The notes: generated by a model not told the origin, from the letters alone. Counted from the stretch's first letter, positions 21,819 through 58,186 are shown. The stretch is DNA of 64,000 nt from Oscillatoria acuminata PCC 6304 (GCF_000317105.1 NC_019693.1:3967227-4031226), one strand, 5' to 3'. Numbers and translations are program-made.

Positions 21819-21819
21819 T

Positions 21820-36500: not shown

Positions 36501-39500
36501 GCAATCCTCTGGGGATAAGCCTTGTAGGTCAATCACCGGGAGGGTAAAGGGAGTTGCGGGGATGATCTGCTGCACCGGATGTCTGTTAACCGTGACAAAT
36601 TGAGTTCTCAGGATTTCGTGACGGCGCACAATTTCCGTGAAACACTGTTCTAAGGCGGTAGGGTTCAGTTTTCCGGTAATTCTAACGGCGCGAGGCAGGT
36701 TGTATGACGGGCTGCCCGGGTCGAGGCGGTCCAAAAACCAGAGTCGTTGTTGGGCAAAGGATAGAGGCGCAGTTTCACCCCGAGAGGTGGGAACAATGGC
36801 GGGAATTTCTAAGCCCAGTTCCGCCTGAATTGCCTGTTCGATCCGTTCGGCGAGAGTGCCGAGGGTGGTGGCTTCAAAGAGGGTTTTCAGGGGTAATTCC
36901 ACCTGGAATGTCGCCCGTAATCGGGAAATTGCCTGGGTTGCCAGCAGGGAATGACCTCCGAGGGCAAAAAAGTCATCGTGGATGCTGATCGCCGGGCAAT
37001 GTAACAGTTCCGCCCAAATCCCGGCGATCGCAGCTTCCACAGGGGTGCTTGGGGCGATATACTCCGTCGCTGTTGCTAACTGAGTATCCGGGGTAGGGAG
37101 GGCGCGGCGATCGCGTTTACCGTTGGCAGTCAAGGGTAAGCTATCCATCGCCACAAATGCTGTCGGTATCATATACTCCTGCAACCGTTGTGCTAGAAAC
37201 TCCCGAATTGCCTCAGTGTCCAGCTTCCCAGATGGGACTATATAGGCGACGAGGCGGGGGTTTCCCGGTTCATCTTCTCGCAATGTGACCACCGTTTCGC
37301 GGACTGTGGGATGCTGGGCGAGGACTGTTTCAATTTCCCCTAATTCAATCCGGAACCCGCGAATTTTCACCTGTTCGTCTACCCGTCCCAGAAATTCAAT
37401 GGTCCCGTCGGGGAGATAGCGGGCGCGATCGCCGGTTTTGTAGAGGCGATTTTCTGGGGAAGTCTGGAAGGGATTCGGGATAAATTTATCTTGAGTGAGT
37501 TCGGGACGGTTAAGGTAACCCCGGGCTACTCCGGCCCCTCCGATATACAATTCTCCGGTGACACCAATGGGGACAGGTTGCTGATGCTGATCCAGGATAT
37601 AAATTTGGGTATTCGCAATGGCACTCCCCAGAGGGACTGTTTTCGCGTAGGGAGGATGAGTTTGGGGTACTTCGTAAGTCAGGACCCCGACGGTGGTTTC
37701 TGTGGGTCCGTAATGGTTGAAAATCCGGCAATTGGGAGCCGATTCGCGGATGGTGGCGACTGCCTCCCAAGTTGCGGTTTCCCCACCCAGGACCAAACAA
37801 TGCCGAGGTAGGATATCACTGGGGCGATCGCCGCCTAACAGGGCCATTAAATGACTGGGGACAATTTTCAGGCAGTCGATGGGATGCTGCCGGAAGTATT
37901 CTGCAAGTGCCTCGGGGTCTGAGGACCGCATTTTAGAAATAATATGCAAAGTTCCGCCACATAATGCTGGAAAAATTACTGTATTTCCCAAGTCTGCTGA
38001 CAAGGTGGAGACTAAGGCAAAACTCCCGGGAGTGGGTAAGTTCAGCCGGTCCTGAATGGCGTAACAATAATTCAAAATTTGCCGATGGGCGATCGCCACT
38101 GCTTTCGGTTGTCCAGTCGAACCGGAGGTAAACAGAATATAGGCTAAGTTGTTTTCCGTCGCACTTGGGGCTAAATTTTCGGCACTTTCTCCCTGGAGGG
38201 TATCTCCATCCAGACAGACAAAGGGACAGTTTGGTAAGCGATGGGAGAGGCTTTGTTCTGTTACCACAGCCACAGGCTGAATGTCCTGCAAGCGCAGGGA
38301 TAGAGCTTCCAAAGGCAATTCGGCATCTAAGGGGAGATACGCGCCCCCGGCTTTGAGAATCCCCAGCATGGCGACGAGGGAGAGGTGAGAACGATGGGTC
38401 AAAATGCCAACCACGGCATCGGGACCGACTCCCAATTTCTTTAGGTAATGTGCCAGTTGATTGCTTTGTTCATTTAACTGGCGATAGGTGAGGTGGGTTT
38501 CTTCAAAGACTAAGGCGATCGCATCCGGACTATTGTTAACTGCTTCCTCAAATAGTTGATGCATCCCCTCTTTGATGGGGTAAGACTTCTCGGTTTGATT
38601 CAGTTGAAAGAGAAACTGCCGCTGGGGTTCCGGGAGAATCGGTAACTGAGAAATACCTTGAGTGGGATGGGCGATCGCCTGAATTAGCAGAGTCTCGAAT
38701 TGTTCGGCTAACTGTTGGATATAGTCGTTTGAATAGTGATTTTTATCATAACTTAATTCAGCCTTTAATCCATGAGTCAAAGCTGTAACAGTTAATTTAA
38801 CTTGAAATGGCTCACTGTGGGTAAACGGCTGAGTAATAGAAAAGGAAATTCCATCCACCGACTGAGGTCCCGGGAGGCTGATAAACTCAAATCCGATGGG
38901 AAACCCTACCCGATGGAATTCTAAGGACTCGCTATGAATATAGTCTTGCCATTCCACCGATTCAGTTAAAGATTTCGTCGTTAAATTCACGGCTTTTTTT
39001 AGAGACAATTCTCCCGCCAGATGCAAACGAACCGGCAGGCAATGGCTCAATAATCCAAAGACTGATTCTAATTCTTCATAATCATCGCGGATATTATAAA
39101 TCGTCCCCACAATAAGTTCTGATTCCCCTGAGATTCGATGGAGGAGAATCTGCCAACAAGTCAGCAACAAGACGGCAGGAGAAATTTCCCACTGTTGCGC
39201 TAAGGTTTGAAGTTGGGTTCCCCCTTGAGAGTCAATCGTCCAGGAATAACTCTCGGGAGTAAAAGGTTCCTGAATAGGGGTGAGGATTTGTAACGGCAGT
39301 TTCATCCGTTCTAAGGCAGAGAAATCTTGTTGTTGCCAATAGGCTAAACCAGATTCCACTTCCCCTGCTTCCCCTAATAATTCATGTTGCCATTCGGAGA
39401 ATTGAACATATTGCACCCCCTCTTCCTCGGAGGCATCATCCAATTGACCGGAATAGGCGAGACTAACTTCGGCTACCCAATTTTTGAGAGTGCCATTATC

Positions 39501-39932
39501 CCCACATAAAGCCGGTATGCTAACTATTAACAGCAGTTGATTCGCTGCCAGAGTGATAGCCAAAACTCGCAGGTTAGAATCCTTTTCTCCATCAAAAGAG
39601 ATAGATTTTTCTGTGGTAAAAATAGCTTGAATTTTGCCTTGGACATCTTCAGGAGAAACCGCATTAAAATCAAGGGTTTGCCAATAAAACCCACTTTGAT
39701 TGTCAATTACCATCACCGGGGTTTTCATCCCCGGGATGCGACGAAATTGGGTCCTCAAAATATCGTGGCGATTCACCACCGTTTGGATGGCAGATTGTAA
39801 CCGTTCGAGGTCAACTTTTCCGGAAATGAGAACGCTACATTGAGCGCGATAAGCTGGATTTTCTGCCTGATAGGACCACAAGCGTTTTTGTTGGGGGGAA
39901 AGCCGAAAACCGGCTTGATGATTACTGTGCAT
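33591..39932 (-). CDS. NRPS, two modules: N-terminal C-like domain lacking HHxxxDG, then A-T-C-A-T
   Basis: N-terminal domain has 'GFRLSPQQKRLW...' with 'VSIPALCGDNGTL' at the HHxxxDG position. A1 'LAYILFTSGSTGQPKAV' with 'LSADLGNT' (Asp-like D235/L236/T239 by eye). Canonical C 'HHIVSDGWS'. A2 'LAYVIYTSGSTGKPKGA'. Two T domains. Confidence 0.85.
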   Translation of the reverse strand: MHSNHQAGFRLSPQQKRLWSYQAENPAYRAQCSVLISGKVDLERLQSAIQTVVNRHDILRTQFRRIPGMKTPVMVIDNQSGFYWQTLDFNAVSPEDVQGKIQAIFTTEKSISFDGEKDSNLRVLAITLAANQLLLIVSIPALCGDNGTLKNWVAEVSLAYSGQLDDASEEEGVQYVQFSEWQHELLGEAGEVESGLAYWQQQDFSALERMKLPLQILTPIQEPFTPESYSWTIDSQGGTQLQTLAQQWEISPAVLLLTCWQILLHRISGESELIVGTIYNIRDDYEELESVFGLLSHCLPVRLHLAGELSLKKAVNLTTKSLTESVEWQDYIHSESLEFHRVGFPIGFEFISLPGPQSVDGISFSITQPFTHSEPFQVKLTVTALTHGLKAELSYDKNHYSNDYIQQLAEQFETLLIQAIAHPTQGISQLPILPEPQRQFLFQLNQTEKSYPIKEGMHQLFEEAVNNSPDAIALVFEETHLTYRQLNEQSNQLAHYLKKLGVGPDAVVGILTHRSHLSLVAMLGILKAGGAYLPLDAELPLEALSLRLQDIQPVAVVTEQSLSHRLPNCPFVCLDGDTLQGESAENLAPSATENNLAYILFTSGSTGQPKAVAIAHRQILNYCYAIQDRLNLPTPGSFALVSTLSADLGNTVIFPALCGGTLHIISKMRSSDPEALAEYFRQHPIDCLKIVPSHLMALLGGDRPSDILPRHCLVLGGETATWEAVATIRESAPNCRIFNHYGPTETTVGVLTYEVPQTHPPYAKTVPLGSAIANTQIYILDQHQQPVPIGVTGELYIGGAGVARGYLNRPELTQDKFIPNPFQTSPENRLYKTGDRARYLPDGTIEFLGRVDEQVKIRGFRIELGEIETVLAQHPTVRETVVTLREDEPGNPRLVAYIVPSGKLDTEAIREFLAQRLQEYMIPTAFVAMDSLPLTANGKRDRRALPTPDTQLATATEYIAPSTPVEAAIAGIWAELLHCPAISIHDDFFALGGHSLLATQAISRLRATFQVELPLKTLFEATTLGTLAERIEQAIQAELGLEIPAIVPTSRGETAPLSFAQQRLWFLDRLDPGSPSYNLPRAVRITGKLNPTALEQCFTEIVRRHEILRTQFVTVNRHPVQQIIPATPFTLPVIDLQGLSPEDCEAEVRRLTEAEAGQGFNLESSRLLRGQLLQLSATEWVLLFTLHHIVSDGWSTAVLIRELAALYPAFSEGKPSPLPALPIQYADFALWQKNWLQGAVLETQLGYWKQQLGGSLPVLELPTDKPRPPVQTFRGNSESLTLPYPLSESLKQLSGRQGVTLYMTLLAAFKTLLYRYSGQEDILVGSPIANRNHGEIEQSIGFFVNTLVLRTNLSDSPSFSQLLTRVRDVTLGAYAHQDLPFEKLVEALQPERDLSRSPLFQVMFIFQNAPVTPLELPGLTLEPLEHRNGTAKYDLSLYVRETESGLQATWEYNTDLFEPATIQRMQGHWQTLLEAVATAPETPISHLPLLTPTEEQQLLGQWNQTQADYPQTACLHQLFEAQVELTPEEVAVEFAGVHLTYRQLNAKANQLAHYLQGLGVEPERLVGLCIDRSVEMVIALLGILKAGGAYVPLDPSYPPERLEFMVSDSQVPILLTTEQLLSELPENQALVLCLDTEWSAIAHQSDENPVSGIEPDNLAYVIYTSGSTGKPKGAMNTHRGICNRLLWMQDSYELTASDRVLQKTPFSFDVSVWEFFWPLLTGARLIVAQPDGHKDSTYLVKLIAESQITTVHFVPSMLQVFLEERGLENCHSLRQVFCSGEALPKELADRFLARLGAKLHNLYGPTEAAVDVTFWECDRASPLNIVPIGRPVANTQIYILDPSLQPVPIGVKGELYIGGVQLARGYLNRPELTAEKFIQNPFDEPGQRLYKTGDLVRYLPNGDIDYLGRIDNQVKLRGYRIELGEIEAVLAQHPQVQQSVVTLREERLVAYWVKASTELIFPDLKGFLKTKLPAYMVPTAFVELETLPLTPNGKIDRKSLPEPDFTGPQETWVAPRTALEQQLAELWSEVLGIERIGLYDNFFELGGHSLLATQLISRIREVFQVELPLKTLFEATTIAQLGEAVAQGQAPVKVPAIARASRQGRQVKRSELN

Positions 39933-42900
39933 GAGCTTCCTCCATAACTGGGAATTGAATATCTGCTCGCTGCACCATTTCCCCCATTGCTACGACAATT
40001 TTCCGGGGTCCGACGAAGGGGTTACGACTATGAGCAGCCAGCATATTATCTAACATGACCACATCTCCTTGTTGCCAGGAAAATGTGACGGCGAGGTTTT
40101 CATAGAGAGTGGCAATTTCAGCGATGGTTTCCTCTTCTATTGCCGAACCATCTCCATAATAAACGTTGCGGGGTAATTTATTTTCTCCAAACAAAGAAAG
40201 TAATGATTCCCGCACAGAAACATCCAAACAGCCAATGTGATGTAACAGGATTTGATTGAAAAATACCCATTCTCCGGTTTGCGGATGCTTGGCGATCGCC
40301 GGTTGAATTTTTTCCGTTCTTAATCCATTATCGGGCAACCATTGGCAGCGAATTCCCGCTTGATTGCAATAGTTTTCAACCACGGCGCGCTCATCGGTAT
40401 GGAAAAATTCTTGCCAACTGACATCTAATCCTTCCGTAAAAGTCCGGACATACATTAGCTGCTTTTGAGCTAATTTTTCTCGGATTTGAGGGTTGAGATA
40501 TTGATAGACTTTCCGACAATCCACAATCGGGGTTTCGCCCCCTTCCTGCGCCGGTTGAGCACAGAAAAACCAGATTTTTAAGGGCCAACAATGGAGATGA
40601 GAACTTTCATTATGAAAGAGAATGGCTTTATCCGCTGGATAGGGAGTCGAACCATAAACTTTACCGCTGATTCCCTCCCGAGGCAAATCTCCATATTCGC
40701 CAAATAGTTGGGGACAAATTCCTTGGGCGAATTGCTCAAAATTCCCCGGAGTTTGCAATCCAAAATTGCGGAATAAAATACCACCATGCTGCTGCAACTG
40801 GGTTTGGATAAACTCGCGGTTATGAGTCGCCCATTCCACGGCATCTAGTTCGGAAACACGGGGGGTAATGACCAGGGGAAAGGTTTCACCGGGGGTTAAA
40901 TACTCGGTGTTGATTAATCGTTCTGGGGATAAATCAACGGTTTGCGCTTGCACCGCTTTAAAGGTTTTTAATTTCAGGGACTTACGCGCTTGTTTTTGCA
41001 TAGCTTGTTGTTCTCGTTCGGATTCCGGGATGAAGTCGAGGGCGTCCAGGCGACTATCGGATTGGGTGGAAATATTGCTGAGTAAGGTGACAAAATGATG
41101 GGAAAACTTGACAATTGCACCCTCCTCAAATTTGTCAGCATTGTACTGCCATTTTCCCGCAATTCCCGATTCAGTTTCCGTTAGAAATAGGGCGATATCA
41201 AAGCGGGCGATGCCGGTATCCACTGCCACGGGTTCCAGGGTTAACCCGGACAGTTCTAAGGGCGGCATGGGTGCATTTTGTAAGACAAACAGCACTTGGA
41301 ATAAGGGATTGGCAGTAGACTGGCGATCGGGACGCAAGGTTTCTACCAATTTCTCAAACGGAACATCCTGATGGGCGTAAGCATCTAAGGTGACTTGTTT
41401 CACCCGGGTTAACAGTTCCCGAAATGAAGGATTTCCTGACAAATTCGTGCGTAAGACGAGGAGATTTATGAAAAATCCGATTAATCCCTCGGTTTCCAGG
41501 GAACTGCGGTTGGCGAGGTCCGTTCCCACCACTACATCATCACATTGAGTATAGCGGTAGAGGAGGGTCTGGAATCCTGCCAACAGGGTCATAAACAGGG
41601 TGACATTTTCTTGGTGACTGAGGACCTGCACCCCACGGGCCACCTCTGCCGGAATTTGGAAGGTATAGGTTGCCCCTTTTCGGCTGCTGATGGGCAGTTG
41701 GGAACGAGAACCGGGCAAGTTGAGGACCGGGAGAGTTCCCCCTAACTGCTGCTTCCAGTATGCCAATTTATGCTCTAATATTTCCCCTTGTAAGACATGA
41801 CGCTGCCATACCGCAAAATCAGCATACTGGATGGGCAGTTCCGGAAGGGCTACGGATTTTCCGGTGGAAAAGGCGTCATACAGGGTTGCTATTTCTCGAA
41901 TCAATACCCCCATTGACCAGCCATCGGCAATAATGTGGTGTAAGACGAGAACCAACAGGCGATCGCCCTCATGTTGGATCAGGGTAACTCGCAATAGCGG
42001 AAGCTGTTCTAAATCAAAGGGTTTGAGGGATTCTGCTACAGCAGTTTTCACCCCCTCTGCCTCCCAGTCTTCCGAGGCAACTTCGGACAAATCCAGAGTC
42101 ACGATGTTTACCCGCAATTGCGGCGCAATGGCTTGGATCGGTTGTCCGTCAATAGCGGGAAAGCTCGTCCGTAGGGCTTCGTGACGGTCAATTACCGCAT
42201 TGAGACTTGCCTCCAATGCTGCTTCATCCAAGTTCCCCGTCAGCCGCAGGACCGCCGGTATATTATAGGTTGCCGTTCCGGGTTCCAATTGTTCCAGGAA
42301 CCACAAGCGTTGCTGGGCAAAGGATAGCGGTAAATTCTGATTCCGAGAGACGGGCATCAGGGGGAAGCTGGCGGTTACGGTTGCACCTGAAATCCGGGAT
42401 GCAAACTCTCTCACTGTGGGCGATTCAAACAAACTCCGCAGGGGGAGTTCCACCTGGAATGTATGAGGAATCCGGGATATCAGTTGAGTTGCCAGTAAGG
42501 AATGACCCCCTAACTCGAAGAAATTCTCCTCAACCCCGACTTGTTCTAACCCCAGAACCTGCGCCCAAATCTCGGTTAACTGTTGTTCTAGGGGAGTTGC
42601 CGGGGCAATGTGAGCCTCTTTTCCTTGGCGACTGGGGGCAGGAAGGGCTTTCCGGTCAATTTTACCATTGGGGGTTAATGGCAAAGTGTCTAAGACGACA
42701 AAAGCCGCTGGAATCATGTAATCGGGCAATTGTTGCTTGAGAAGCTGTCGCCATTGAGAACTATTCGGTTCTGCTTGGGGATGTAATACCACATAAGCGA
42801 CTAACCACGTATCTCCCGGGGTATCTTCTCGGGCAATCACGACCCCTTGGCGCACCTCGGGATTCTTTGCCAATACCGACTCTATCTCACCGAGTTCAAT

Positions 42901-45900
42901 CCGGAATCCCCGAATTTTGACTTGATTATCGACCCGTCCGATATATTCTAACGTGCCATCCGGACGATACCGCGCTACATCCCCTGTTTTATAGAGTTTC
43001 ACCTCGGGATTTTCGGCAAAAGGACTGGGGATAAATTTCTCAGAGGTTAATTCCGGCTGATGCAGATATCCGGCTGCCAATCCTGCGCCTCCAATATATA
43101 AATCTCCGGGGATGCCGACAGGAACTGGCTGCAATGCCTGATCCAAGAGGTAAATTTGGGTATTCGCGACTGCCCGTCCGATGGAAACAGTCTCCTCCCC
43201 CGGAGTCACCGGATACAGAGTAGACCAAATGGTAGTTTCCGTCGGTCCATATAAATTCCAGACGGAACCTGCCCGATTACACAACTCATCCGCCAGCAGT
43301 CGCGGCAGGGCTTCCCCGCCACAGAGGATTTTAAGCTGCGGGCGACCCTGCCATCCGCTTTCGATTAACATCCGCCAAGTTGATGGCGTTGCTTGCATGA
43401 CAGTTATCTGTTGCGAGTCCAAAAGTGAGGCTAATTGCTGCCCGTCTGTCGCCACTTCGCGACTGGCAATAATCACGCAAGCGCCTACGGTGAGGGGGAG
43501 AAACAGTTCTAATGCGGCAATATCAAAAATCAGCGTTGTCACCGCTAACAGGCGATCGCCACAAGTTATGCCCGGTTCCCGCTTCATCGAAGTGAGAAAA
43601 TTAACCACACTCCGATGCCGCAATTGCACCCCTTTCGGTCGCCCCGTAGACCCCGACGTATAAATAATATACGCCAAATCCTCAGCCCGCGCAGGCGGGC
43701 TTTGTTCGTATAGCCCCACCCTTCCAGGGTGCGGGTTCATAGCATCCAAACACACCACCCGCGCCTGATGACTGGGTAACGTCGAAATCAGATGCTGCTG
43801 AGTGAGAATCACCCCCGCTTGGGAATGTTCCAGCATATATTGAAGCCGATCGCCCGGAAGTGCAGGGTCCAGAGGAAGATAGGCAGCCCCAGATTTGAGA
43901 ATTCCCAACAGTCCCACCAGCATTTCTAACGAGCGATCGACGTAAAGCGCCACTGCCTGATTCCGTTGTACGCCTATGGATTGCAAATATTGGGCTAACT
44001 GACTGGCGCGATCGCTCAACTCCTGATAAGTGAGAGATTGCCCCTCAAAAACTGCCGCCACTGCATCCGGGGTTTTGGCAACTTGCGCCTCAATTAATTC
44101 ATGAATACAGGCAGTTTCTGGATACTCTGCTGCCGTATCATTCCACTGGTGCAAGAGTTGTGCCTGTTCATTTGCAGTCAACATCGGCATTTCCGATATC
44201 CGGGCGTCGGGACCGGCAACCGCACTTTCTAGCAGGGTTTGGAAATGTCCTAGCATTCGTGAGATTGTCCCTGCCTCGAACAAATCTGTACTATATTCCA
44301 GAGTCGCCAACAATCCTTGACGGGTTTGGGCGATCGCCAGGGTGAGGTCAAACCGGGATTTTTTGCTGTCCAACTCCAGCAGATTTAACCGCAATCCGGG
44401 CAGTTCCAACTCCGCCATTGGGGCATTCTGGAGGACAAACATCACCTGAAAAATTGGACTATGACTCAAAGTGCGACTGGGCTGTAATGCTTCCACAAGT
44501 TGCTCAAAGGGCAAGTCTTGATGAGCATAAGCCCCCAAAGCTACCTCACGCACCCGTCCCATCAACTCCCGAAAACTGGGGGTTCCGGATAAGTCCGTTC
44601 GTAAGACAAGGGTATTGACAAAACAGCCGATTAGCCCTTCAATTTCCCCACGATTCCGGTTAGCGATGGGAGTTCCCACCCGAATATCACTTTGTCCACT
44701 ATAGCGATACAACAAGGTTTGGAACGCCGCCAGGAGGGTCATATACAGAGTCACGCCGGATTGCTGAGAGAGGGTGTTTAGGGCCTCACTCAGTTCAATC
44801 GGCAGGGTGAGAGATTGGGTCGCCCCCCGGAAGGATTGCACCCCTGGACGAGGGTAATCCGTGGGCAAGTCTAATCCGGGCAAATCTCCCCCCAGTTGGC
44901 GCTTCCAATAGTCCATCTGCGCCCCTAACCTGGCCTGATTCAGCCATTGGCGCTGCCACAGGACAAAATCGGCATATTGTACTGCCAGGGCGGGCAAGGG
45001 GGAAATCCTGCCGGTAGAATAGGCACCGTATATCGTCCCTAATTCCTGAATCAGCACCCCCATTGACCAGCCATCGGAAACAATGTGATGAATGACAAAC
45101 AGGAGAATAAATTCATCCGGTTGTAATTGGAACAGGGTCAAGCGGACTAGGGGAGGCTGGGTTAAATCAAAGGGTTGTTGCACCCAGGCAACTGCTAGGG
45201 ATGGTACTTGGGACTCCTCACAGGAAATGACCGGCAGGGTAATTCTCACCTCGGGCATAATTTCCTGGATGACGCAGCCCTCGCCCTCGACAAACCGAGT
45301 CCGTAAGGTGTCGTGACGGCGAGCAATTTCGTTAAAACTCTCTTCTAGGGCGGGAATATTTACCTGACCCTGTAATCGCACAGCAGCCGCACTGTTATAG
45401 GTTCCGGGTTCCAATCCTTCCAAAAACCATAACCGTTCCTGAGAGAAGGAAAGGGGAACTGCGCCGGTTTTGGATACTGGAACGATCTCCGGTATATCCA
45501 GCTTTTCTCCTGCGGCAAGGGAGGTTTCGATGCAGTCGGCTAATTGTGCGAGAGTGGGGGTTTCAAATAGACTCCGCAGGGGCAACTCTACCCCAAATGT
45601 ATCTCGAATTTGAGAGACGAGTTGGGTTACCAGGAGAGAATGTCCCCCGACTTCAAAGAAATTATCTTCTCTGCTAATCGGATGGCGCTGCAACAGTTGC
45701 GCCCAAATCCCTGCCAGCAGTTCTTCTACGGGAGTTCGGGGTGCGATCGCCTCAGACTGACCCTGTAATTCCTCCGGTGTGGGAAGTGCCTGCCGGTTCA
45801 CCTTGCCATTGGGGGTGAGAGGGAAACTGTCCAAGACAGCGAAGGTGCTAGGAATCATGTAATCTGGTAAGCGTTGACTGGCAAACTGCCGCAACTCCCG

Positions 45901-48663
45901 CCCTAGTTCTCCTGGGCGATCGCTCGTCACATAAGCAACTAAACGCTTTTCCCCGCCTTCTTCCCGCGCCACAACCACGGCATCGCGGACCGCAGGATGT
46001 TCACTCAGAACGGATTCAATCTCACCTAATTCAATCCGAAATCCGCGAATTTTGACTTGATAATCCCGGCGTCCGACAAATTCGATTGTGCCATCGGGGA
46101 GATAGCGAGTTAAGTCCCCAGTTTTATACAGTTTGCCATCTGGGTGATAGGGGTCGGGAATAAATTTTTCAGCCGTGAGTTCCGGGCGATTAAGGTACCC
46201 TTGCCCGACGCCCCAACCCCCGACATACAGTTCCCCCGTCACCCCAATGGGGACAGGCTGCTGAAACTCATCCAGGATATAGAGTTGAGTATTGGCGATT
46301 GCGCGTCCCAGTGGCACAATTTGTATCCCCTCACTCAGGGTATCCGGGATTGGATAGGTGGCAACAATCCCGCAGGTTTCCGTTTGTCCGAACATATTGA
46401 TAAACTGTGCCGGATGCTGGAACTCCTGCCGCCAAATTTGAGGCAAATCGGACCGTAAGGGTTCGCTGGCAGAGACAATCAGGCGCAAATTATTCACCAA
46501 CAGGTGCGATCGCCCTTGTGCCTCTAAGTGACTCAAGGCATAAGTGCTATTCCGCCAAAATGACGGGACAATATCAATGACAGTCACATTTCGGTCCTTG
46601 ACTTCCTGGAACAGGGCGAGGGGGTCTTGCCGCTGTTGTGAGGTGGCAATATTCACCGTTGCCCCTGCTGCCAAGGGGACCATCAACTGTCTAACGGAGG
46701 AGGAAAAGGCGATGGAAGCGGTATGCAGGTAAATGTCATCCCTTTGGATACCCAAAGCATGACCCATCGCCTGTACATAGTGGCAAAGGTTGCGATGGCT
46801 GATTTTCACCCCTTTGGGTTTGCCCGTAGAACCAGAAGTATAAATAATGTAGGCAATCTCTCCCCCCGGGGTAGTCGCATTTTCTGCGGATTGGGCAGCA
46901 ATGGCATCCCTGTCGCTATCGAGACAGACAATTTTTGCCGGAATTTCTGACAGTTCTGCGGTCAAACTAGCCTGAGTGAGTAAAACTGAAGGTTGGGCAT
47001 TTTCTAACATGAACCCTAGTCGTTCTTTCGGATAGGCTGGGTCCAGGGGAACATAAGCCGCCCCTGCTTTGAGGATGCCTAAAATTGCGACAACCATTTC
47101 CAGCGATCGCTCTAAATACAGTCCGACTAAATCCTGAGAATTTACCCCTAATTGTTGTAAGTAACCCGCCAATTGATTGGCGCGGGCATTGAGTTCGCCG
47201 TAGGTTAGGGTTTCCTGACTAAAAATTAGAGCAATTTTATCTGGGGTAGCCGTTGCTCGTTCTTCAATAAATTGATGAATCGTCTCGTAACCGTTATAAT
47301 CCCGATGGGTTGCATTAAATTGAACTAACAACTGATGCCGTTCAGTTTCGGTTAAAAGATTGAGCTGAGACAGGGGCTTTTCAGGTGTCGCAATAATGCT
47401 TTCTAATAAGCAAATCAGTTGGTTACCGAATCGCTGAATCGTCTCTATTTGAAACGCATTGGTATCATAGTCAAAGACTAGAATTAAACCCTCTTTGTCC
47501 GGTTGAACTGAGAGTTTTAGCTTAAAGCGACTGCCAACCCACCAAGGGCGATCGCAAGTCAAGGAAAGCTGCGAATCCCCGTAGGTTTGCGCCTTGCTTC
47601 GCCCTTCAAAAGCCAGAGGGAAAAACGGTGCCGTTTCTGGGGGTAATCCCGATAGAGTTTCCCAAGTAAAATACTCCTGCCACTTTTCCCCTTCTGCGAC
47701 TGCCTGATGCACCACCGGCAGAATTCCTGCAAAAGTTGCCGATTCTCCTGCGGAATAATTTAGGGGTAAAACTTTAGCAAAAGCACCTATTGCCGTTGAT
47801 AATTCTGCGTATTTTCGACCCTCTGCTAAAACGCCAATGGTAAAAGTTTCCTGTCCCGTGAATCTTTGGATTAAACCTAGCCAAGCGGTTAACAAAACCG
47901 TTTGAGTTTTAACTTCATAGTTGTCAGCAAATTGAGCAATTTTTTCGGTTAATTCTCCCGAGAGTTTTACTGCATAATCTTGAGGCTGAAATCTCGAAGA
48001 ATTTCCCTCCAGTTCCCCGGGCAATTTCAGGGTTCCTAGACCCGCAACCTCTAGTTGACGCCAATAATTAGCCCCAATTTCGGTTTCTGGCGATTCTAAT
48101 AATTGATTTTGCCATTCGGCTAAATCCGCATATTGCAAGGGTTCATCAGATAAGGTTTCCCCTTGACAAATTGCCCGATAAGTAGTGGCAATTTCTGACC
48201 CTAAATTCTCCAGAGATTGAGCATCGGCACAAACTGCCGGTAAGCGAATTATTAATACAGACTGTTCCACACCTAGGGAAACCCAGGCGGCGTGAAATAA
48301 TGGCCCTTGTTCCCAATTAAAGGGCTGTTGTCCGATTTCCTGGATGTAAGCGGCAAGTTTACTGTCCCTGTCTTCCGGTAAACAGGAACTTAAATCTAAG
48401 GGGTCATGCCATTGGAACTCCCCTGTCGTAATTGCTTGAACCGGCAGGGTCATTCCCGGTAGACAGGGAAAGGTGGTCCGCAGGATTTCATGGCGTTGTA
48501 TGACAGTGCCGATCGCGGTTTTTAAAATCCCAGAATCGCACTTTCCGGCAATCTGCACCATTCCCTGACAACAATAGGCAAAGTTATCAAGCTGTTGCAG
48601 TTGCCACACCTGTTTTTGCTGGGGAGAAAGTCGAAACCCCTCAATCTCGTTGATCATGCTCAA
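39922..48663 (-). CDS. NRPS, 2913 aa: HH-less C-like domain, then A-T-C-A-T-C, then a fused TauD/TfdA-family Fe(II)/2OG dioxygenase domain
   Basis: N-terminal C-like domain with 'IIRLPAVCADAQS' in place of HHxxxDG. A1 ('IAYIIYTSGSTGKPKGV', A4 region 'IAFSSSV'). T. C 'HHIVSDGWS'. A2 'LAYIIYTSGSTGRPKGV'. T. Third C domain with intact 'HHIIADGWS' (~41915-41940). C-terminal ~336 aa TauD-like domain (39925-40935; 'GGILFRNFG', 'HNE...H', 'AHSRNPF'). The stop overlaps the next gene's ATG by 11 nt. Confidence 0.85.
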   Translation of the reverse strand: MSMINEIEGFRLSPQQKQVWQLQQLDNFAYCCQGMVQIAGKCDSGILKTAIGTVIQRHEILRTTFPCLPGMTLPVQAITTGEFQWHDPLDLSSCLPEDRDSKLAAYIQEIGQQPFNWEQGPLFHAAWVSLGVEQSVLIIRLPAVCADAQSLENLGSEIATTYRAICQGETLSDEPLQYADLAEWQNQLLESPETEIGANYWRQLEVAGLGTLKLPGELEGNSSRFQPQDYAVKLSGELTEKIAQFADNYEVKTQTVLLTAWLGLIQRFTGQETFTIGVLAEGRKYAELSTAIGAFAKVLPLNYSAGESATFAGILPVVHQAVAEGEKWQEYFTWETLSGLPPETAPFFPLAFEGRSKAQTYGDSQLSLTCDRPWWVGSRFKLKLSVQPDKEGLILVFDYDTNAFQIETIQRFGNQLICLLESIIATPEKPLSQLNLLTETERHQLLVQFNATHRDYNGYETIHQFIEERATATPDKIALIFSQETLTYGELNARANQLAGYLQQLGVNSQDLVGLYLERSLEMVVAILGILKAGAAYVPLDPAYPKERLGFMLENAQPSVLLTQASLTAELSEIPAKIVCLDSDRDAIAAQSAENATTPGGEIAYIIYTSGSTGKPKGVKISHRNLCHYVQAMGHALGIQRDDIYLHTASIAFSSSVRQLMVPLAAGATVNIATSQQRQDPLALFQEVKDRNVTVIDIVPSFWRNSTYALSHLEAQGRSHLLVNNLRLIVSASEPLRSDLPQIWRQEFQHPAQFINMFGQTETCGIVATYPIPDTLSEGIQIVPLGRAIANTQLYILDEFQQPVPIGVTGELYVGGWGVGQGYLNRPELTAEKFIPDPYHPDGKLYKTGDLTRYLPDGTIEFVGRRDYQVKIRGFRIELGEIESVLSEHPAVRDAVVVAREEGGEKRLVAYVTSDRPGELGRELRQFASQRLPDYMIPSTFAVLDSFPLTPNGKVNRQALPTPEELQGQSEAIAPRTPVEELLAGIWAQLLQRHPISREDNFFEVGGHSLLVTQLVSQIRDTFGVELPLRSLFETPTLAQLADCIETSLAAGEKLDIPEIVPVSKTGAVPLSFSQERLWFLEGLEPGTYNSAAAVRLQGQVNIPALEESFNEIARRHDTLRTRFVEGEGCVIQEIMPEVRITLPVISCEESQVPSLAVAWVQQPFDLTQPPLVRLTLFQLQPDEFILLFVIHHIVSDGWSMGVLIQELGTIYGAYSTGRISPLPALAVQYADFVLWQRQWLNQARLGAQMDYWKRQLGGDLPGLDLPTDYPRPGVQSFRGATQSLTLPIELSEALNTLSQQSGVTLYMTLLAAFQTLLYRYSGQSDIRVGTPIANRNRGEIEGLIGCFVNTLVLRTDLSGTPSFRELMGRVREVALGAYAHQDLPFEQLVEALQPSRTLSHSPIFQVMFVLQNAPMAELELPGLRLNLLELDSKKSRFDLTLAIAQTRQGLLATLEYSTDLFEAGTISRMLGHFQTLLESAVAGPDARISEMPMLTANEQAQLLHQWNDTAAEYPETACIHELIEAQVAKTPDAVAAVFEGQSLTYQELSDRASQLAQYLQSIGVQRNQAVALYVDRSLEMLVGLLGILKSGAAYLPLDPALPGDRLQYMLEHSQAGVILTQQHLISTLPSHQARVVCLDAMNPHPGRVGLYEQSPPARAEDLAYIIYTSGSTGRPKGVQLRHRSVVNFLTSMKREPGITCGDRLLAVTTLIFDIAALELFLPLTVGACVIIASREVATDGQQLASLLDSQQITVMQATPSTWRMLIESGWQGRPQLKILCGGEALPRLLADELCNRAGSVWNLYGPTETTIWSTLYPVTPGEETVSIGRAVANTQIYLLDQALQPVPVGIPGDLYIGGAGLAAGYLHQPELTSEKFIPSPFAENPEVKLYKTGDVARYRPDGTLEYIGRVDNQVKIRGFRIELGEIESVLAKNPEVRQGVVIAREDTPGDTWLVAYVVLHPQAEPNSSQWRQLLKQQLPDYMIPAAFVVLDTLPLTPNGKIDRKALPAPSRQGKEAHIAPATPLEQQLTEIWAQVLGLEQVGVEENFFELGGHSLLATQLISRIPHTFQVELPLRSLFESPTVREFASRISGATVTASFPLMPVSRNQNLPLSFAQQRLWFLEQLEPGTATYNIPAVLRLTGNLDEAALEASLNAVIDRHEALRTSFPAIDGQPIQAIAPQLRVNIVTLDLSEVASEDWEAEGVKTAVAESLKPFDLEQLPLLRVTLIQHEGDRLLVLVLHHIIADGWSMGVLIREIATLYDAFSTGKSVALPELPIQYADFAVWQRHVLQGEILEHKLAYWKQQLGGTLPVLNLPGSRSQLPISSRKGATYTFQIPAEVARGVQVLSHQENVTLFMTLLAGFQTLLYRYTQCDDVVVGTDLANRSSLETEGLIGFFINLLVLRTNLSGNPSFRELLTRVKQVTLDAYAHQDVPFEKLVETLRPDRQSTANPLFQVLFVLQNAPMPPLELSGLTLEPVAVDTGIARFDIALFLTETESGIAGKWQYNADKFEEGAIVKFSHHFVTLLSNISTQSDSRLDALDFIPESEREQQAMQKQARKSLKLKTFKAVQAQTVDLSPERLINTEYLTPGETFPLVITPRVSELDAVEWATHNREFIQTQLQQHGGILFRNFGLQTPGNFEQFAQGICPQLFGEYGDLPREGISGKVYGSTPYPADKAILFHNESSHLHCWPLKIWFFCAQPAQEGGETPIVDCRKVYQYLNPQIREKLAQKQLMYVRTFTEGLDVSWQEFFHTDERAVVENYCNQAGIRCQWLPDNGLRTEKIQPAIAKHPQTGEWVFFNQILLHHIGCLDVSVRESLLSLFGENKLPRNVYYGDGSAIEEETIAEIATLYENLAVTFSWQQGDVVMLDNMLAAHSRNPFVGPRKIVVAMGEMVQRADIQFPVMEEAHAQ
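43683..43740. repeat. REP-like double-hairpin element lying in-frame inside the A2 domain coding sequence
   Basis: 'agcccgcgcaggcgggctttgttcgtatagccccacccttccagggtgcgggtt' is ~90% identical to the intergenic 21766-21818. On the minus strand it encodes 'PHPGRVGLYEQSPPARAE' just upstream of core motif A3. Confidence 0.6.
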
Positions 48664-48722
48664 TCTCCGATTCTAGTAAATGCACCCCTAAGCGGGGTAA
48701 ACGTAGCGTATAAAGTTCTGTA

Positions 48723-49775
48723 TTACAAGTTTTGGGAAAACAATTCTGACATCCCGACAACGATTTTCCTGGGTCCTGAAAAGGGTTGTCGTCCGTGGGC
48801 TGTCAGCATATTATCTAACATTAGAATATCTCCGGTTTCCCAGGGAAATAATACCGTTTCTGCCCGATAAGCGGCGCGGATTTCTTCTAAAACCTCGGGT
48901 TCAATGGGTGACCCGTCTCCATAATAAGTATTATGGGGTAAATCCTCTTCAGAAAATGCCTTTAATAACGCCTCTCGAATCGGGGGTTCCAAGGTGGATA
49001 CATGGAAGAATACCCCATGATTAAACCAGACAGCTTCCCCGGTAATAGGATGGTGGGCGATCGCCTGCCGGACTTGACGGGTACGCAGGCGATTTTGCCC
49101 TTTCCATTCCCACTCTATCCCATTTTTGCGACAAAAATCTACCACTTGGGAGGTATTTTCTGTTTGGAATACAGTTTGCCAGGGCAACCCAAACCCATCG
49201 CCAAAATTGCGGACATACATCACCTGTTTTTCAGCAAAACGGCGGCGAATTTCAGGGGGAATCCGTTGCAATAACTTGCGGGTGTCGGCGATAGGAGTTT
49301 CGCCTCCTTCTGTGGGGGGAATCAAACAGCAAAAGAAGATTTTTAAGGGCCAACTGGCTGCATAAGAGTTCTCGCTATGGAGAAAAATGGTTTGATTCGC
49401 GGGATGATCCGTCGAGGTATAAATATTACCATTGACGGGACTCCGAGGGGATGAGCGATCGCGATAATCCAGCAACTCCCCCGATACGGTTTGAATCAAC
49501 TCCTCAAACTCTTCCACATCCCGAATCCCAAAGTTTCGGAATAGAATGCCCCCATGTTTTTGCAACGCCGTTTGAATAAAATCTCGGTTTGTATTCGCCC
49601 AAACGGTTAAATTCACCCCCTCGATTTGGGGCTGAATTAACAAAGGTAAAGACTGGTCCAAAAACATCGGCTTGGCTTCGACCAATTTGGTCGTTTCCAC
49701 GCTAACGGAACGCCGTTTGACGGCACCGAATGTCGTTAGATTAGGAGTGGAGGAGTCTGAAAATTTCATGACCAC
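48723..49775 (-). CDS. Standalone TauD/TfdA-family Fe(II)/2-oxoglutarate dioxygenase (SyrP-like amino-acid beta-hydroxylase)
   Basis: 350 aa, paralogous to the fused C-terminal domain of the 2913-aa NRPS ('GGILFRNFG', 'HSENSYAASWPLKIFF', 'GGETPIADTRK', 'LDNMLTAHGRQPF'). Confidence 0.8.
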   Translation of the reverse strand: MVMKFSDSSTPNLTTFGAVKRRSVSVETTKLVEAKPMFLDQSLPLLIQPQIEGVNLTVWANTNRDFIQTALQKHGGILFRNFGIRDVEEFEELIQTVSGELLDYRDRSSPRSPVNGNIYTSTDHPANQTIFLHSENSYAASWPLKIFFCCLIPPTEGGETPIADTRKLLQRIPPEIRRRFAEKQVMYVRNFGDGFGLPWQTVFQTENTSQVVDFCRKNGIEWEWKGQNRLRTRQVRQAIAHHPITGEAVWFNHGVFFHVSTLEPPIREALLKAFSEEDLPHNTYYGDGSPIEPEVLEEIRAAYRAETVLFPWETGDILMLDNMLTAHGRQPFSGPRKIVVGMSELFSQNL

Positions 49776-49782: not shown

Positions 49783-52700
49783 CTAAACTGTACGGGTTGC
49801 TTGCCGTTTGGTGAGCTTTAGTTTTTGTAAGCTAACGGCTTGTAAAGATTCGGCTTGGCGTTGTCGTTGTTGATGGCAACTGCCATAAACGTTTAATTCA
49901 GTTAATCGCAGGTGAGGTTGAGTCACAACTTGGTGCAATACCCCTTCATAATCCTCAACCATCTGGGCTATTGTCTCTGGGTTAAATAAATCCGTTTGAT
50001 ACTCAAAGGACCCTTTAAATCCCGCTGGATCGTCCCAAATACTGACCTTTAAATCAAACTTGGAAGTCCCTAAATCAACTTCCTGGGACTCAAAACTGAG
50101 TCCAGGAATTTCCACCGTGGGAATCGGCGCGTTTTGCAGAATAAACATCACCTGGAATAACGGATTATAACTTAAATTTCGTTCCGGCTGCAACTCTTCC
50201 ACTAATTTATCAAACGGTAACGCCTGATGAGCATAAGCCCCCGATGCTACAGCCCGGACTCGCTGCAAAACTTCTCTAAAATTGGGATTTCCTGACAAAT
50301 CAGTTCGTAAAACGAGAGTATTAATAAAAAAGCCAATTAATCCTCTAGTTTCAGGCTTTTCCCGCCCTGCTACCGGCGAACCGACTGCAATATCCTCTTG
50401 CTGACTGTAACAGCATAACAGGATTTTAAACCCTGCCAACAGGGTCATAAATAAGGTGACTTCTTCTTGGCGATTCAACTCCCGAACTGCCTCAGACAAG
50501 GTGGGAGAAAATTGGAAAAAGCACTTTTGACCGGCAAAGGTGGGAATTTCAGGACGAGGGCGATCGCAAGGTAAGTTCAACCGAGATAAATTCCCCTGAA
50601 GTTGCTGCTTCCAGTAATCTAATTCCCGTTGTAATCCCTCAGTTTGTAGCTGTTGCCGTTGCCATGCCGCAAAATCAGCATATTGGATGGGTAAGTTTCC
50701 TAAATTCGGGGCTTGACCCGCTGTCAATGCTTCATAAATGGCGGCAATTTCGCGCACCATGACCCCAACGGACCAGCCATCAGAAATAATATGATGGAGG
50801 ACAATCGATAAACAATGGCGCTGGTCCTGAACTCGGAATAAATGGACTCGCAATAAAGGCGCTTGCGAGAGATTAAACGGGGTTTTAGCTTCCTGTTGCA
50901 ACCGGGTGGATACTTCCGTTTCCAATACCTCAGAGATTGGCAATTTTACCGTTACCGGGAGCATCTCTATTTGTCCTAAAAACAAGTGGGACCTCTCCCC
51001 CCTGCCCCCCTCCCCTACAAGGGGAGGGGGGAATAAATCTCTTTCTCCCCCTTCCCTCTTAGGGAAGGGGGCTGGGGGGTTAGGTCTTTCTCCCCCTTCC
51101 CTCGCAGGGAAGGGGGCTGGGGGGTTAGGTCTCTTTTCAAAGTTGAAATCCCCCCCCATCACCGAGGCTTGAATCTGCTGAATGGGCCGCCCTTTAACTT
51201 CTGGAAATCCAGTCCTCAACCCTTCGTGACGGTTCACCAATTCTTGGAGGCTGGACTCTAAAATCTTGGTGTCCAGTTTCCCGACAATATTCAGGCAAAA
51301 TGCCACATTATAAAACGGATTTCCCGGTTCCAAGCGGTCCAAAAACCATAACCGTTCCTGGGCGAGTCCCACGGGCAATTCTGCCGTGCGAGAAACAGGC
51401 TCAATTGGGTCAATCGGCTGCTGAGTTTCCAGCAGATTGTCCGCTTTTTGGGCCAACTCTACTAAACTGATACCCTCGAAAAAGTCTACTACATCAATGT
51501 TGACACCCCATGCTAATTCAAGCTGATTTTTGAGGTCAAATGCCATCAACGAATCGAGTCCAAACCGACTGAGGGGCTGTTTCGGGTCAATGTCTACAAC
51601 CGAAACATTCAATAAGCTAGAGACTCGGCTGGTTAAATCAGCAATTAGCTCAGTTTGTCGCTGTTCCGGTGCAAGGTTGAGTAGACTTTCTCGGTCCCAA
51701 TTTTTCTCTAATTTCCCGGACATTGATGACGCTACCAGACTTTGATCCACCACTTGCAGTTCACCATTAAGGAAGCGATCGCGACAGGCACGGCGTTGAA
51801 TTTTTCCACTCGAAGTTTTGGGAATCGTACCCGGTTTAATCAGCACAACTCCATACACTTGCACCTCAAATTCCTCTGCGACTGCCTGCCGAATAGCGGC
51901 GATCGCCTCGGATAAATTCGGTTTAGCGCGAAACTCCAATTCTTGCACCACCACCAGCCTTTCTTCCCCTGCCACCTCCACGGTAAAAGCAGCAGTTCCC
52001 GTCAACCGAAATGCCCGATGACTCGACTCCGTAGCGCGTTCGATATCCTGGGGATATAAATTACGTCCCCGAATCAGAATTAAATCCTTAACCCGACCCG
52101 TAATATACAGTTCCCCATCCTCTAGGAAACCCAAATCCCCGGTGCGTAAAAATGGCCCTTCTCCACTGTCAGCCAGGAATGCTTGAAATGTATGACGACT
52201 CTCTTCCGGACGATTCCAATAGCCTTGGCAGACACTGGGTCCAGACACCCACACTTCTCCCACTTCGTTCCCTGCACAACGAGCACCCGTTTCCGGATGG
52301 GCGATCGCAATCTGCATATCCGGAACCGCAGAACCACATCCCACCAAGGTTACAGCATTTTCCCCTGAGTCCGAATCGGTAATCTGATTCCGTTCAAATG
52401 CACCTTTATCGATCGCCTTCCAAGGATAGGGAACCGATGTCATACTCCCCGACACCATCAACGTTGTTTCTGCCATCCCATAACAGGGATAAAAGGCTTC
52501 CGGTTGAAATCCACAGTCCGCAAAGGCTTCCTGAAATCGCACTAACGTCTCATGGCGAATCGGTTCAGCGCCATTAAATGCCACCTGCCACCGACTCAAA
52601 TCCAGGGTTGCCTTTTGTTCCGGCGTAATCTTACTCACACATAAGTCATAGGCAAAATTAGGTGCACCACTTGTCGTCCCCCCATAATCGGAAATCGCTT

Positions 52701-53937: not shown

Positions 53938-55212
53938 ATGCGTACTTTTCTGATTGTTTGGCTGGGTCAGTTGGTCTCTACCTTCGGGAGTCGAATGACC
54001 AACTTTGCCCTAATTGTTTGGACTTGGGAAGTGACCGGATCAGCCACTGCCCTGGGTTTGGTGACCGTCTTTACTCAACTGCCCGGTTTAGCAGTCGCCT
54101 TATTTGCCGGGGCGCTCATCGATCGCAGCGATCGCAAAGTCGCGATCATTGTGGGAGATTCCATTGCCGCACTTTCAACCTTGACCATTTTATTGTTAGC
54201 GGCAGTCGGGCAACTGCAACTCTGGCATCTGTTCGTGATTAATGGCATCAATGGCATTTTCGGGGAAATCCAACAATTGGCGTATTCGGCGTCAGTGAGT
54301 TTGATGGTTCCGAAACAGCACTATGTCCGGGTCAGCAGCCTCAAATCCATGCTGCATTACGCCCCAAATATTTTATCCCCCGCCTTTGCCGGTGCCCTGT
54401 ACCCCATTACCGGACTGGTGGGAATTGCCGCTATCGACTTACTCACCTTTGCGGTGGGGGTGAGTACGGTGCTTTTGGTTAAGATCCCCCAGCCTCCCCG
54501 AAGTGAGTTAACGTCTAATCAGCCGAAACTCTGGCAGGAACTCACCTTGGGCTGTCGTTATATTATGGCCCGTTCCTCCTTAATGGGATTTTTCGCTTTA
54601 GAGTTACTCTTTTGGTTTGGGCATGATTTGGGCGCAGTGATGCATCGGTCTACTATTTTAGCCCGGACCGATGGGAATGCCGAAGTGCTCGGGATGGTGA
54701 GTGCAGCAGCGGGAATTGCCGGAATTATTGGGGCAGTTGCTTTGACCGGGTGGGGTGGCCCCAAGCGCCGGATTCAGGGATTTTTAGGGTCAGCGATCGC
54801 CGTGGGGGTGAGTAAAACCCTATTTGCCCTCGGTCAATCCCTATCAATTTGGATCCCCATGCAGTTATGCTCCTCCCTAAATTTTCCCCTGTTAACCAGT
54901 TCCAGTACCGCCATTTGGCTGGAAAAAACCCCCCCGGAAGTCCAGGGACGGGTGTTTGCCGCCCAATCCTTCGGCATGGGAGTGGTCTCAACTGTGGCAA
55001 CGGCAGTCGCCGGTCCCTTAGCCGACGGCTTCTTTGAACCCGCCATGCGACCCGGTGGCGTCTTAAGCCCCTGGTTTGGCAGCCTCTTCGGCACAGGTCC
55101 CGGTTCCGGGATGGCCCTGTTATATGCCGTCACCTCCCTGGGTTTGATTCTCGTCGGAATTCGGGGATACTGTTGGCCCCTGGTGCGCCAGATAGAAAAG
55201 AGTAGCGTCTAG
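53938..55212 (+). CDS. MFS transporter, EntS-like (candidate siderophore exporter)
   Basis: 424 aa, ~12 TM segments. N-terminus 'LIVWLGQLVSTFGSRMTNFALIVW...LFAGALIDRSDRK' resembles the enterobactin-exporter MFS subfamily. Confidence 0.6.
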   Translation: MRTFLIVWLGQLVSTFGSRMTNFALIVWTWEVTGSATALGLVTVFTQLPGLAVALFAGALIDRSDRKVAIIVGDSIAALSTLTILLLAAVGQLQLWHLFVINGINGIFGEIQQLAYSASVSLMVPKQHYVRVSSLKSMLHYAPNILSPAFAGALYPITGLVGIAAIDLLTFAVGVSTVLLVKIPQPPRSELTSNQPKLWQELTLGCRYIMARSSLMGFFALELLFWFGHDLGAVMHRSTILARTDGNAEVLGMVSAAAGIAGIIGAVALTGWGGPKRRIQGFLGSAIAVGVSKTLFALGQSLSIWIPMQLCSSLNFPLLTSSSTAIWLEKTPPEVQGRVFAAQSFGMGVVSTVATAVAGPLADGFFEPAMRPGGVLSPWFGSLFGTGPGSGMALLYAVTSLGLILVGIRGYCWPLVRQIEKSSV

Positions 55213-55431
55213 TTGAAAGTTTTCCGCATTATTTGCTAAGAATTGTCAAGAAAAGTTGCTATTTTGATAAACAGCACCAGCCCCAGTCAACCCTGAATTC
55301 TCCAAAGTCCAGGGTTGAGAACCTTGATAAATCAAGCAGAACTTCCGCTCAATCCGGACTTGAGGAGGGGTTTGGCAGAAATTTTCCGCCCCCATTTCCT
55401 CCGGTTACCAAAAAATTTTAGCAATTACCTA

Positions 55432-55460
55432 TTGACAGTCATAGACCACTTAGGGTAAAT
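55432..55460 (+). promoter_or_regulatory. Candidate sigma70-type promoter for the TonB-receptor/ABC operon
   Basis: 'ttgaca' (55432-55437), 17-nt spacer, 'gtaaat' (55455-55460), ~85 nt upstream of the TTG start. Confidence 0.3.
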
Positions 55461-55545
55461 TGACTTGGCTAATGCAAATTACTATCAATAACTGAGATGA
55501 ATTGCAAAAACTTCTATTGTATAGATTGGGACTGAGGAAAGGAAA

Positions 55546-58185: not shown

Positions 58186-58186
58186 G

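Follow-up and report, generated by a model that had tools for sequence, protein, structure and literature searches.

The DNA analysed here, a stretch of 64,000 nucleotides from Oscillatoria acuminata PCC 6304 (NC_019693.1:3967227-4031226; hereafter the window), contains two TauD-family hydroxylases, each followed by a nonribosomal peptide synthetase (NRPS) that starts with a condensation-like domain lacking the catalytic HHxxxDG motif. We consider it likely that this region encodes the first half of a lipopeptide siderophore assembly line of the cyanochelin type and that it is built from two units, each consisting of a catalytic condensation (C) domain, a TauD and an interface-adenylation-thiolation (I-A-T) module; this degree of confidence applies to the explanation as a whole. 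The features of a cyanochelin-type line that were found are a lipid starter of the FAAL-ACP-C type (fatty acyl-AMP ligase, acyl carrier protein, C domain), the two TauDs, a KS-AT-ACP protein (ketosynthase, acyltransferase, carrier protein), a heterocyclisation (Cy) domain with the motif DGIFFD and a terminal reductase (R) domain. All coordinates are those of the whole stretch, and the hydroxylase and NRPS genes lie on the minus strand.

The first unit starts in the FAAL-ACP-C lipoinitiation protein (49783..53475; Pfam AMP-binding, PP-binding and Condensation), in which our own hidden Markov models (HMMs) delimited the FAAL domain (about 51736..53418), the ACP (about 51436..51663) and a catalytic C domain (about 49840..51408, with HHIISDG at residue 894). 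After a gap of 7 nt comes the gene of the stand-alone TauD-family Fe(II)/2-oxoglutarate hydroxylase (350 residues, 48723..49775; Pfam TauD, 7e-52). It is followed by a 2913-residue NRPS with the order I-A-T-C-A-T-C-TauD (39922..48663; map of open reading frames, Pfam, motif scan). This protein begins with interface domain 1 (residues 1-445, 47329..48663), which has RLPAVCADAQS in place of HHxxxDG. Then come the non-canonical A domain 1 (45769..47277; code SSRDVAMGIK, core motifs intact) and T domain 1 (45514..45735, motif GGHS), the presumed carrier of the substrate of the stand-alone TauD. A C (HHIVSDG)-A(Gly, DILQLGLIWK)-T elongation module (42376..45480; motifs, A code and own HMMs) separates them from the second unit. 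The latter opens with a catalytic C domain (HHIIADG, 40984..42354; motif, alignment and own HMMs) fused to the C-terminal TauD domain (about 39925..40956; Pfam TauD, 1.6e-44). The HHxxxDG motifs of the second and third C domains of this NRPS stand at residues 1192 and 2242. The next gene, overlapping by 11 nt, encodes a 2113-residue NRPS with the order I-A-T-C-A-T (33591..39932; map of open reading frames, Pfam). It is composed of interface domain 2 (residues 1-441, 38610..39932; SIPALCGDNGT in place of HHxxxDG), the A(Asp, DLTKVGHVGK)-T part of the module served by the fused TauD (36825..38561; A code) and a C-A(Ser, DVWHFSLVDK)-T remainder (33591..36800; A code, own HMMs), whose internal C domain has HHxxxDG at residue 1187. 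No epimerisation (E) domain was present after either hydroxylated module in the domain map. The gene order, the two TauDs and the two C-like domains devoid of HHxxxDG, as described in an earlier reading of the sequence (the original prediction), were all confirmed by the map of open reading frames, by Pfam and by the alignment described below.

The alignment took in the C-like domains of the cluster, nine in total. In it, RLPAVCADAQS and SIPALCGDNGT fell exactly under xxHHxxxDGWS, so that in both HH-less domains the two histidines are replaced by Pro-Ala and the Asp is retained. The PF00668 model covered three stretches in the 2913-residue NRPS and two in the 2113-residue NRPS, the N-terminal domains counted. 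The best matches of interface domain 1 in a sequence search of the Protein Data Bank (PDB) were condensation domains (Txo1, 5.9e-37, over residues 13-445); a solved interface domain was not found by this search. With the NCBIfam models, only generic NRPS or adenylation models were returned for the interface domains, the TauDs and A domain 1. An interface domain belonging to the C superfamily was reportedly described by Reitz in 2019 next to the hydroxylated module in siderophore NRPSs.

The family was followed with small home-made HMMs, made from the window's own domains and used for all domain calls. They were run over 86 related loci, 84 of them non-redundant: five plasmid regions found by tblastn, two near relatives and 79 loci from a genome scan with the TauD alignment. 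HHxxxDG was absent from 89 of the 89 domains picked by the interface model. One pick was an internal epimerase-like domain with a His-His pair; the other 88 shared the consensus sLPALCAD (sLPALCADxxT). The GFRLSPQQKxxW motif, which the original prediction had seen in both N-terminal domains, is indeed common to them and is the family version of the C-motif C1, its consensus across 79 interface-type domains being ieGfrLSPQQk.LW. The N-terminal HH-less domains were separated from catalytic C, E and Cy domains by an exact split in 98 of 100 neighbour-joining bootstraps (this method was used for all trees), with CcsI and CcsL, the equivalents from the cyanochelin B and C clusters, inside the group. 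The mis-called internal E-like domain, a call of the two-sequence HMM, was left out of this test, and the split was recovered in 0 of 100 bootstraps when it was included. Characterised references in this tree were cyanobacterial only, proteobacterial ones such as CucG being left out. The C-superfamily fold, the loss of the catalytic His-His, the position between hydroxylase and A-T and the clade of their own support the view that the HH-less N-terminal domains belong to the interface-domain family, for which they had been put forward as candidates.

A gene starting with an HH-less domain followed 85 of the 106 TauD homologues in the 84 loci, and in 72 of those 85 cases a catalytic C domain preceded the TauD or was fused to it. 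Two TauD-interface pairs were present in 15 loci. An interface domain was observed after a TauD in Cyanobacteria, Acidobacteriota, Chloroflexota and other phyla. The arrangement is not a product of chance, and the counts therefore indicate that the functional unit is C, TauD and I-A-T with variable gene breaks. In Amazonocrinis nigriterrae CENA67, Nostoc sp. T09 and Nostoc sp. LEGE 06077 (loci L009, L010 and L013), the clusters were otherwise collinear and the second hydroxylase was a separate gene (about 18900..20300) from another TauD clade than the fused enzyme of the window; in these close relatives it was therefore replaced as well as split.

The closest genome was the metagenome-assembled genome Cyanophyceae Co_metawrap_1029 (JBBQFN010000002.1), with the same gene order and domains 88-92% identical. 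Among characterised systems, the cyanochelin B cluster of Leptolyngbya sp. NIES-3755 plasmid 2 (AP017310.1; loci L003/L004) has, like the window, one stand-alone and one C-fused TauD, each followed by an NRPS starting with an HH-less domain and A-T: the stand-alone CcsK precedes the I-A(Asp)-T-E protein CcsL, and the fused CcsFGH precedes the I-A(Asp)-T protein CcsI. The two clusters share the stretch A(Gly)-T-C-TauD, I-A(Asp)-T, C-A(Ser), and also a lipid start, a Cy module, a reductive release and neighbouring TonB/ABC uptake genes, and the fused TauDs are 61% identical and belong to the same clade. The order of the two hydroxylase pairs is reversed, however, and the lipid start is based on a polyketide synthase (PKS) in cyanochelin B instead of FAAL-ACP-C. 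The first module of the window has the SSRD code and lacks an E domain, in contrast to CcsL, which combines an Asp code with an E domain; CcsK and the stand-alone TauD of the window are 51% identical and fall into different clades. Marfey analysis of cyanochelin B found L-(2S,3S)- and D-(2R,3R)-threo-beta-hydroxy-Asp, and its authors placed the L form at the position of the fused enzyme and the D form at that of the stand-alone enzyme with epimerase (PMC12628792).

The cyanochelin C cluster of Myxacorys chilensis ATA2-1-KO14 (JAHHHP010000001.1, locus L055) has the same order as the window, i.e., C, stand-alone TauD, I-A-T, then C-A(Gly)-T-C-TauD, I-A-T, and shares with it the FAAL start, the beta-Ala module with its supply enzyme and the AMIN-type transporter cassette. 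It differs in that the C domain before the stand-alone TauD is a separate gene, and in having an Ntn acylase, an enzyme that was not seen in the window. Its stand-alone enzyme gives L-erythro-beta-hydroxy-Asp and its fused enzyme threo DHABA (preprint 10.64898/2026.07.24.740629). This stand-alone enzyme, CcsH2/2, with an Asp-coded partner, belongs to the CcsK clade, and the stand-alone TauD of the window lies outside it. The presence of both gene organisations in one cluster is thus already in the literature, and because the arrangement has been described in published clusters the novelty is lower than the original prediction implied. The proteobacterial siderophore systems of the Reitz type (cupriachelin, alterobactin, delftibactin, potashchelin) likewise have an HH-less domain N-terminal to the module of the hydroxylated residue and, at the end of the preceding NRPS, a C domain with the hydroxylase fused behind it. 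Their hydroxylases were reportedly classified by Reitz in 2019 as IbetaH_Asp, IbetaH_His and TbetaH_Asp. Profiles for these hydroxylases and for interface domains exist in antiSMASH 8. For cyanobacteria, Reitz and co-workers named the hydroxylase clades CyanoBH_Asp1 and CyanoBH_Asp2 (PMC12971057).

Both TauDs of the window, which are 45% identical to each other, keep the HxE...H triad, at H133, E135 and H327 with the conserved Arg R336 in the stand-alone enzyme and at H2684, E2686 and H2878 with conserved Arg residues in the fused one; the triad and Arg columns were invariant across the 106 homologues. An identity as taurine or sulfonate dioxygenases was rejected on genomic context and relatives, which support the assignment of both proteins as NRPS-associated amino-acid hydroxylases, as had been anticipated. 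The neighbour-joining tree comprised the 106 TauDs with 100 bootstraps, its references being cyanobacterial only (CucE/F/G, AltH and DelD were left out). In 100 of 100 bootstraps the fused TauD grouped with CcsFGH and CcsJK, as well as with the fused TauDs from Nostoc UHCC 0926 and Leptolyngbya boryana. A second clade, mostly of stand-alone enzymes with Asp-coded partners, contained CcsK and CcsH2/2 (93/100). The stand-alone TauD fell into a third clade (100/100), in which the partners are His-, Asn-like-, Gln- and SSRD-coded A domains, and within it into a subclade of seven members (94/100). Its best 120 database relatives were all stand-alone proteins. The best 120 relatives of the fused TauD all belonged to the fused clade and many were nonetheless stand-alone proteins, such as one of 359 residues encoded by the complete genome of Nostoc cf. 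commune SO-36. Across Cyanobacteria, Acidobacteriota and other phyla, the TauD clades track the code of the partner A domain.

The specificity positions of the A domains were read from an alignment with a GrsA fragment and compared with the offsets of motifs A4, A5 and A10 as a cross-check. The code after the fused TauD, DLTKVGHVGK, corresponds to Asp. After the stand-alone TauD the code SSRDVAMGIK is devoid of Asp235, the residue that normally binds the alpha-amino group, and A domain 1 is not predicted to load Asp. The domain has intact A3, A7, A8 and A10 motifs and passes TIGR01733. Asp235 was absent from 92 of its best 120 database matches, and R239 and D278 were present in all 92. These Asp235-less homologues are mostly free-standing A-T, A-T-TE (thioesterase) or MbtH-A-T proteins of Cyanobacteria and Acidobacteriota, some of them in exopolysaccharide loci. 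No substrate clue was provided by the genomic context of three homologues of A domain 1 (P0126, P0129 and P0143), which are loading A-T proteins located in exopolysaccharide or PKS/NRPS loci. No close structure was found in the PDB sequence search, the strong score of LgrA being discounted as the sum of two A domains, and no literature match was found for an Asp235-less A domain with Arg239. In the related loci an SSRD code followed the interface domain in 8 modules, usually the first module after FAAL-ACP-C. The other interface-partnered A domains were coded for Asp (35), DLTKxGEVC (9), His-like DSAxIAEVW (4; L027, L028, L030 and L034), Gln-like DAWQFGLID (4; L031, L036, L038 and L077) and Glu-like DAKDLGVVD (2; L032 and L078).

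We propose that the two modules work as split units made of C, TauD and I-A-T. The A domain would load its substrate onto the T domain, the Fe(II)/2-oxoglutarate-dependent TauD would hydroxylate the tethered residue at C-beta, and the catalytic C domain that immediately precedes the TauD, located on the previous protein in unit 1 and fused to the TauD in unit 2, would join the incoming acyl or peptidyl chain to the hydroxylated residue. The non-catalytic interface domain would keep a C-like partner packed on the A domain and is proposed to position C-TauD relative to the T domain; in a module that receives its catalytic C in trans, it probably maintains the C-A platform and offers a docking surface for C-TauD. 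In unit 1, A domain 1 would load T domain 1, the stand-alone TauD would hydroxylate the residue, and the fatty acyl group would be transferred by the C domain of FAAL-ACP-C to give the acylated hydroxylated residue 1. In unit 2, the C-TauD end of the 2913-residue protein would act on Asp held by the first T domain of the 2113-residue protein. The model leans on myxoglucamide, for which MxgA (ACP-C-Ox, where Ox is an oxygenase) and MxgB (I-A-PCP, with a peptidyl carrier protein) have been reconstituted in vitro: the oxygenase acts on Glu bound to the PCP, and its hydroxylation went to completion only when the upstream C domain carried out condensation (PMC13638107). This layout is that of unit 1, gene break aside; the Mxg system differs in its Glu substrate, its fused oxygenase and its non-siderophore product. 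The predicted chain would be acyl-X(OH)-Gly-(L-threo-beta-OH-Asp)-Ser-beta-Ala-C2 unit-heterocycle-X with reductive release.

The original prediction, most of which was right and whose interpretation is partly supported, expected two beta-hydroxy residues, possibly of opposite configuration. For the second the expectation stands: the fused TauD has the catalytic triad, follows a catalytic C domain (HHIIADG), precedes an NRPS starting with I-A(Asp)-T and clusters with enzymes of assigned 3S outcome, namely CcsFGH (L-threo-beta-OH-Asp4) and CcsJK (threo DHABA). On the clade and the Asp code, residue 3 is expected to be L-threo-(2S,3S)-beta-hydroxy-Asp. For the first residue it does not stand in the same way, as an A domain lacking Asp235 and a TauD clade with no characterised member leave both its identity and its C3 configuration without a prediction; to take this residue for beta-hydroxy-Asp as well is unsafe. 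It is possible, though doubtful, that the two enzymes are nevertheless the two classical types and that the product contains one L-erythro (3R) and one L-threo (3S) beta-hydroxy-Asp, like cupriachelin or potashchelin. In cyanochelins B and C the stand-alone enzymes were assigned 3R and the fused ones 3S, potashchelin likewise, and the window has one enzyme of each organisation with no E domain after either module. Of the properties of the classical stand-alone 3R type (CucE, DelD, PtcA), however, only the separate gene is found in the window, where the partner NRPS starts with an interface domain, the A domain is not Asp-coded and the TauD joined CcsK or CcsH2/2 in 0 of 100 bootstraps. None of its best 120 relatives was nearest to the CcsK type; they were nearest to the window or Nostoc UHCC 0926 type. 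Reportedly (Reitz, 2019), interface domains accompany the interface-associated enzymes, whereas the classical stand-alone type is T-associated and lacks them; the one found after the stand-alone gene speaks against that type. Stand-alone proteins in the fused clade and fused TauDs inside otherwise stand-alone clades indicate that fusion state is labile, and clade membership is the better predictor of configuration; the potashchelin authors likewise found that the clade, and not the gene organisation, predicts the C3 configuration. An opposite configuration of the two residues is therefore not supported by gene organisation, the stand-alone TauD being outside the clade of assigned 3R products, and fusion is not a reliable marker of stereochemistry.

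That unit 1 makes no beta-hydroxy-Asp at all, A domain 1 loading another acid to give a new hydroxylated residue 1, is in our opinion unlikely. The invariant R239 and D278 of the 92 Asp235-less homologues, the intact catalytic motifs, the prevalence of free-standing A-T loading proteins in this family and the recurrence of the SSRD type across lineages in interface-partnered modules, usually after FAAL-ACP-C, all speak for it. But the TauDs partnered with SSRD- and with Asp-coded domains are interleaved in one subclade (94/100) with 69-73% identity, no column of the TauD alignment was found to separate the two groups, and at the same position the clusters L010-L012, collinear in other respects, carry an Asp code. 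The interleaving and the lack of a separating column mildly favour an Asp-like substrate for A domain 1 and, with the Asp code of L010-L012 added, suggest an identical or closely similar tethered substrate. More specifically, it is quite improbable that the conserved Asp235-less family (S235, S236, R239, D278) selects a substrate other than L-Asp and that the residue is a new hydroxylated building block; the candidates may then be a C4 diacid with an alpha-hydroxy or alpha-keto group, or Asp that is activated via the side chain. If true, a lipid-proximal iron-binding unit would be made by a third clade of interface-associated hydroxylases. We regard as very improbable a third possibility, that the HH-less domains are functionless condensation remnants decaying after the split of the modules, with no part in hydroxylation. 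The interface domains of the window are 38-42% identical to their Nostocales counterparts, compared with 52-59% for the catalytic C domains and 60-69% for the TauDs, and they appear to evolve faster than the neighbouring domains; moreover, the interface domain of MxgB was dispensable in vitro for coupled hydroxylation and chain extension (PMC13638107). Remnants would not, however, be expected to keep motifs of their own along the full domain (GfrLSPQQk.LW, RhEILRT.F..LpgmPlQ, LPALCAD, QYaD.aeWQNeL and dGR.yeeL..alGLfakyLP), to be monophyletic as found above, or to be retained after most TauD homologues in several phyla, and no frameshifts or stops were seen.

Several points weigh against the model of two hydroxylating units in a cyanochelin-type line. 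Since the interface domain of MxgB could be dispensed with in vitro, the positioning role of this domain is a proposal only. A domain 1, without Asp235, may load a substrate that escapes hydroxylation. The C domain that precedes the stand-alone TauD carries an insertion of 69 residues (RPNPPAPFPAREGGE..., residues 772-840 of FAAL-ACP-C) that might impair unit 1; it corresponds to a gap in all other C domains of the alignment and is absent from the 89%-identical orthologue in JBBQFN010000002.1 (L007). It is a 207-nt in-frame insertion between C2 and C3 (50956..51162, minus strand) made of three palindromic dispersed repeats. The repeat, CCCCCTTCCCT-NNN-AGGGAAGGGGG, occurs in 14 copies in the window against 0 expected by chance, the other copies being at 181, 590, 711, 10128-10487, 28471-28536 and 63260. 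Finally, the product of such a line, a photoreactive beta-hydroxy-Asp lipopeptide formed during iron starvation, is a prediction for the cluster of the window and for its near relatives.

The remaining assembly line extends over 13335..33559 on the same strand (Pfam, A codes, alignment). It comprises C-A(beta-Ala)-T (30242..33559), a pyridoxal-phosphate-type decarboxylase (28557..30188), KS-AT-ACP (25294..28383), Cy-A-T (21820..25269; heterocyclisation motif DGIFFD), C-A(MT)-T-R with a methyltransferase and the terminal R domain (15786..21662), a class-III aminotransferase (14301..15704) and a type II thioesterase (13335..14111). The terminal thioester reductase domain followed by the class-III aminotransferase suggests a release as aldehyde, then a conversion to an amine. 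The weak Pfam Condensation match at the N-terminus of the Cy-A-T NRPS, located after KS-AT-ACP, corresponds to the Cy domain; this protein (H_1149) was considered as a carrier of a third interface domain, which was rejected on its Cy motif DxxxxD (DGIFFD). Its A domain has the code DMFNFGVLWK, which is not known to match any described code.

On the plus strand, divergent transport genes cover 53938..63100 and encode a major facilitator superfamily exporter, a TonB-dependent receptor with an AMIN domain, a periplasmic binding protein, two FecCD permeases, an ABC ATPase and a Suc_Fer-like protein. The domain scan located AMIN, Plug and barrel, Peripla_BP_2, the two FecCD domains and the ABC ATPase within 55546..62116. 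Transport genes of the same kind also flank the orthologous clusters L006 and L007. The neighbouring receptor and FecCD/ABC uptake genes point to a siderophore cluster, as do the FAAL start, the Cy module and the release by the R domain. The receptor itself (55546..58185) has the AMIN domain at its N-terminus; in a 2026 preprint, AMIN-domain receptors are described as an exclusively cyanobacterial class of cyanochelin transporters (10.64898/2026.07.30.741596). Outside the cluster, two tandem genes for MgtE-type divalent cation transporters (511 and 466 residues) were observed at 5122..8173, also on the plus strand.

The organisation of the hydroxylase gene, fused or stand-alone, is thus a poor predictor of beta-hydroxy stereochemistry in cyanobacteria, and the clade of the enzyme is to be preferred. 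Across Cyanobacteria and Acidobacteriota, the interface-hydroxylase pairs of the related loci have partner A domains with codes for Asp, Asn-like residues, His, Gln and Glu, and the Asp235-less A-domain family that recurs in interface modules could hide a new siderophore building block.

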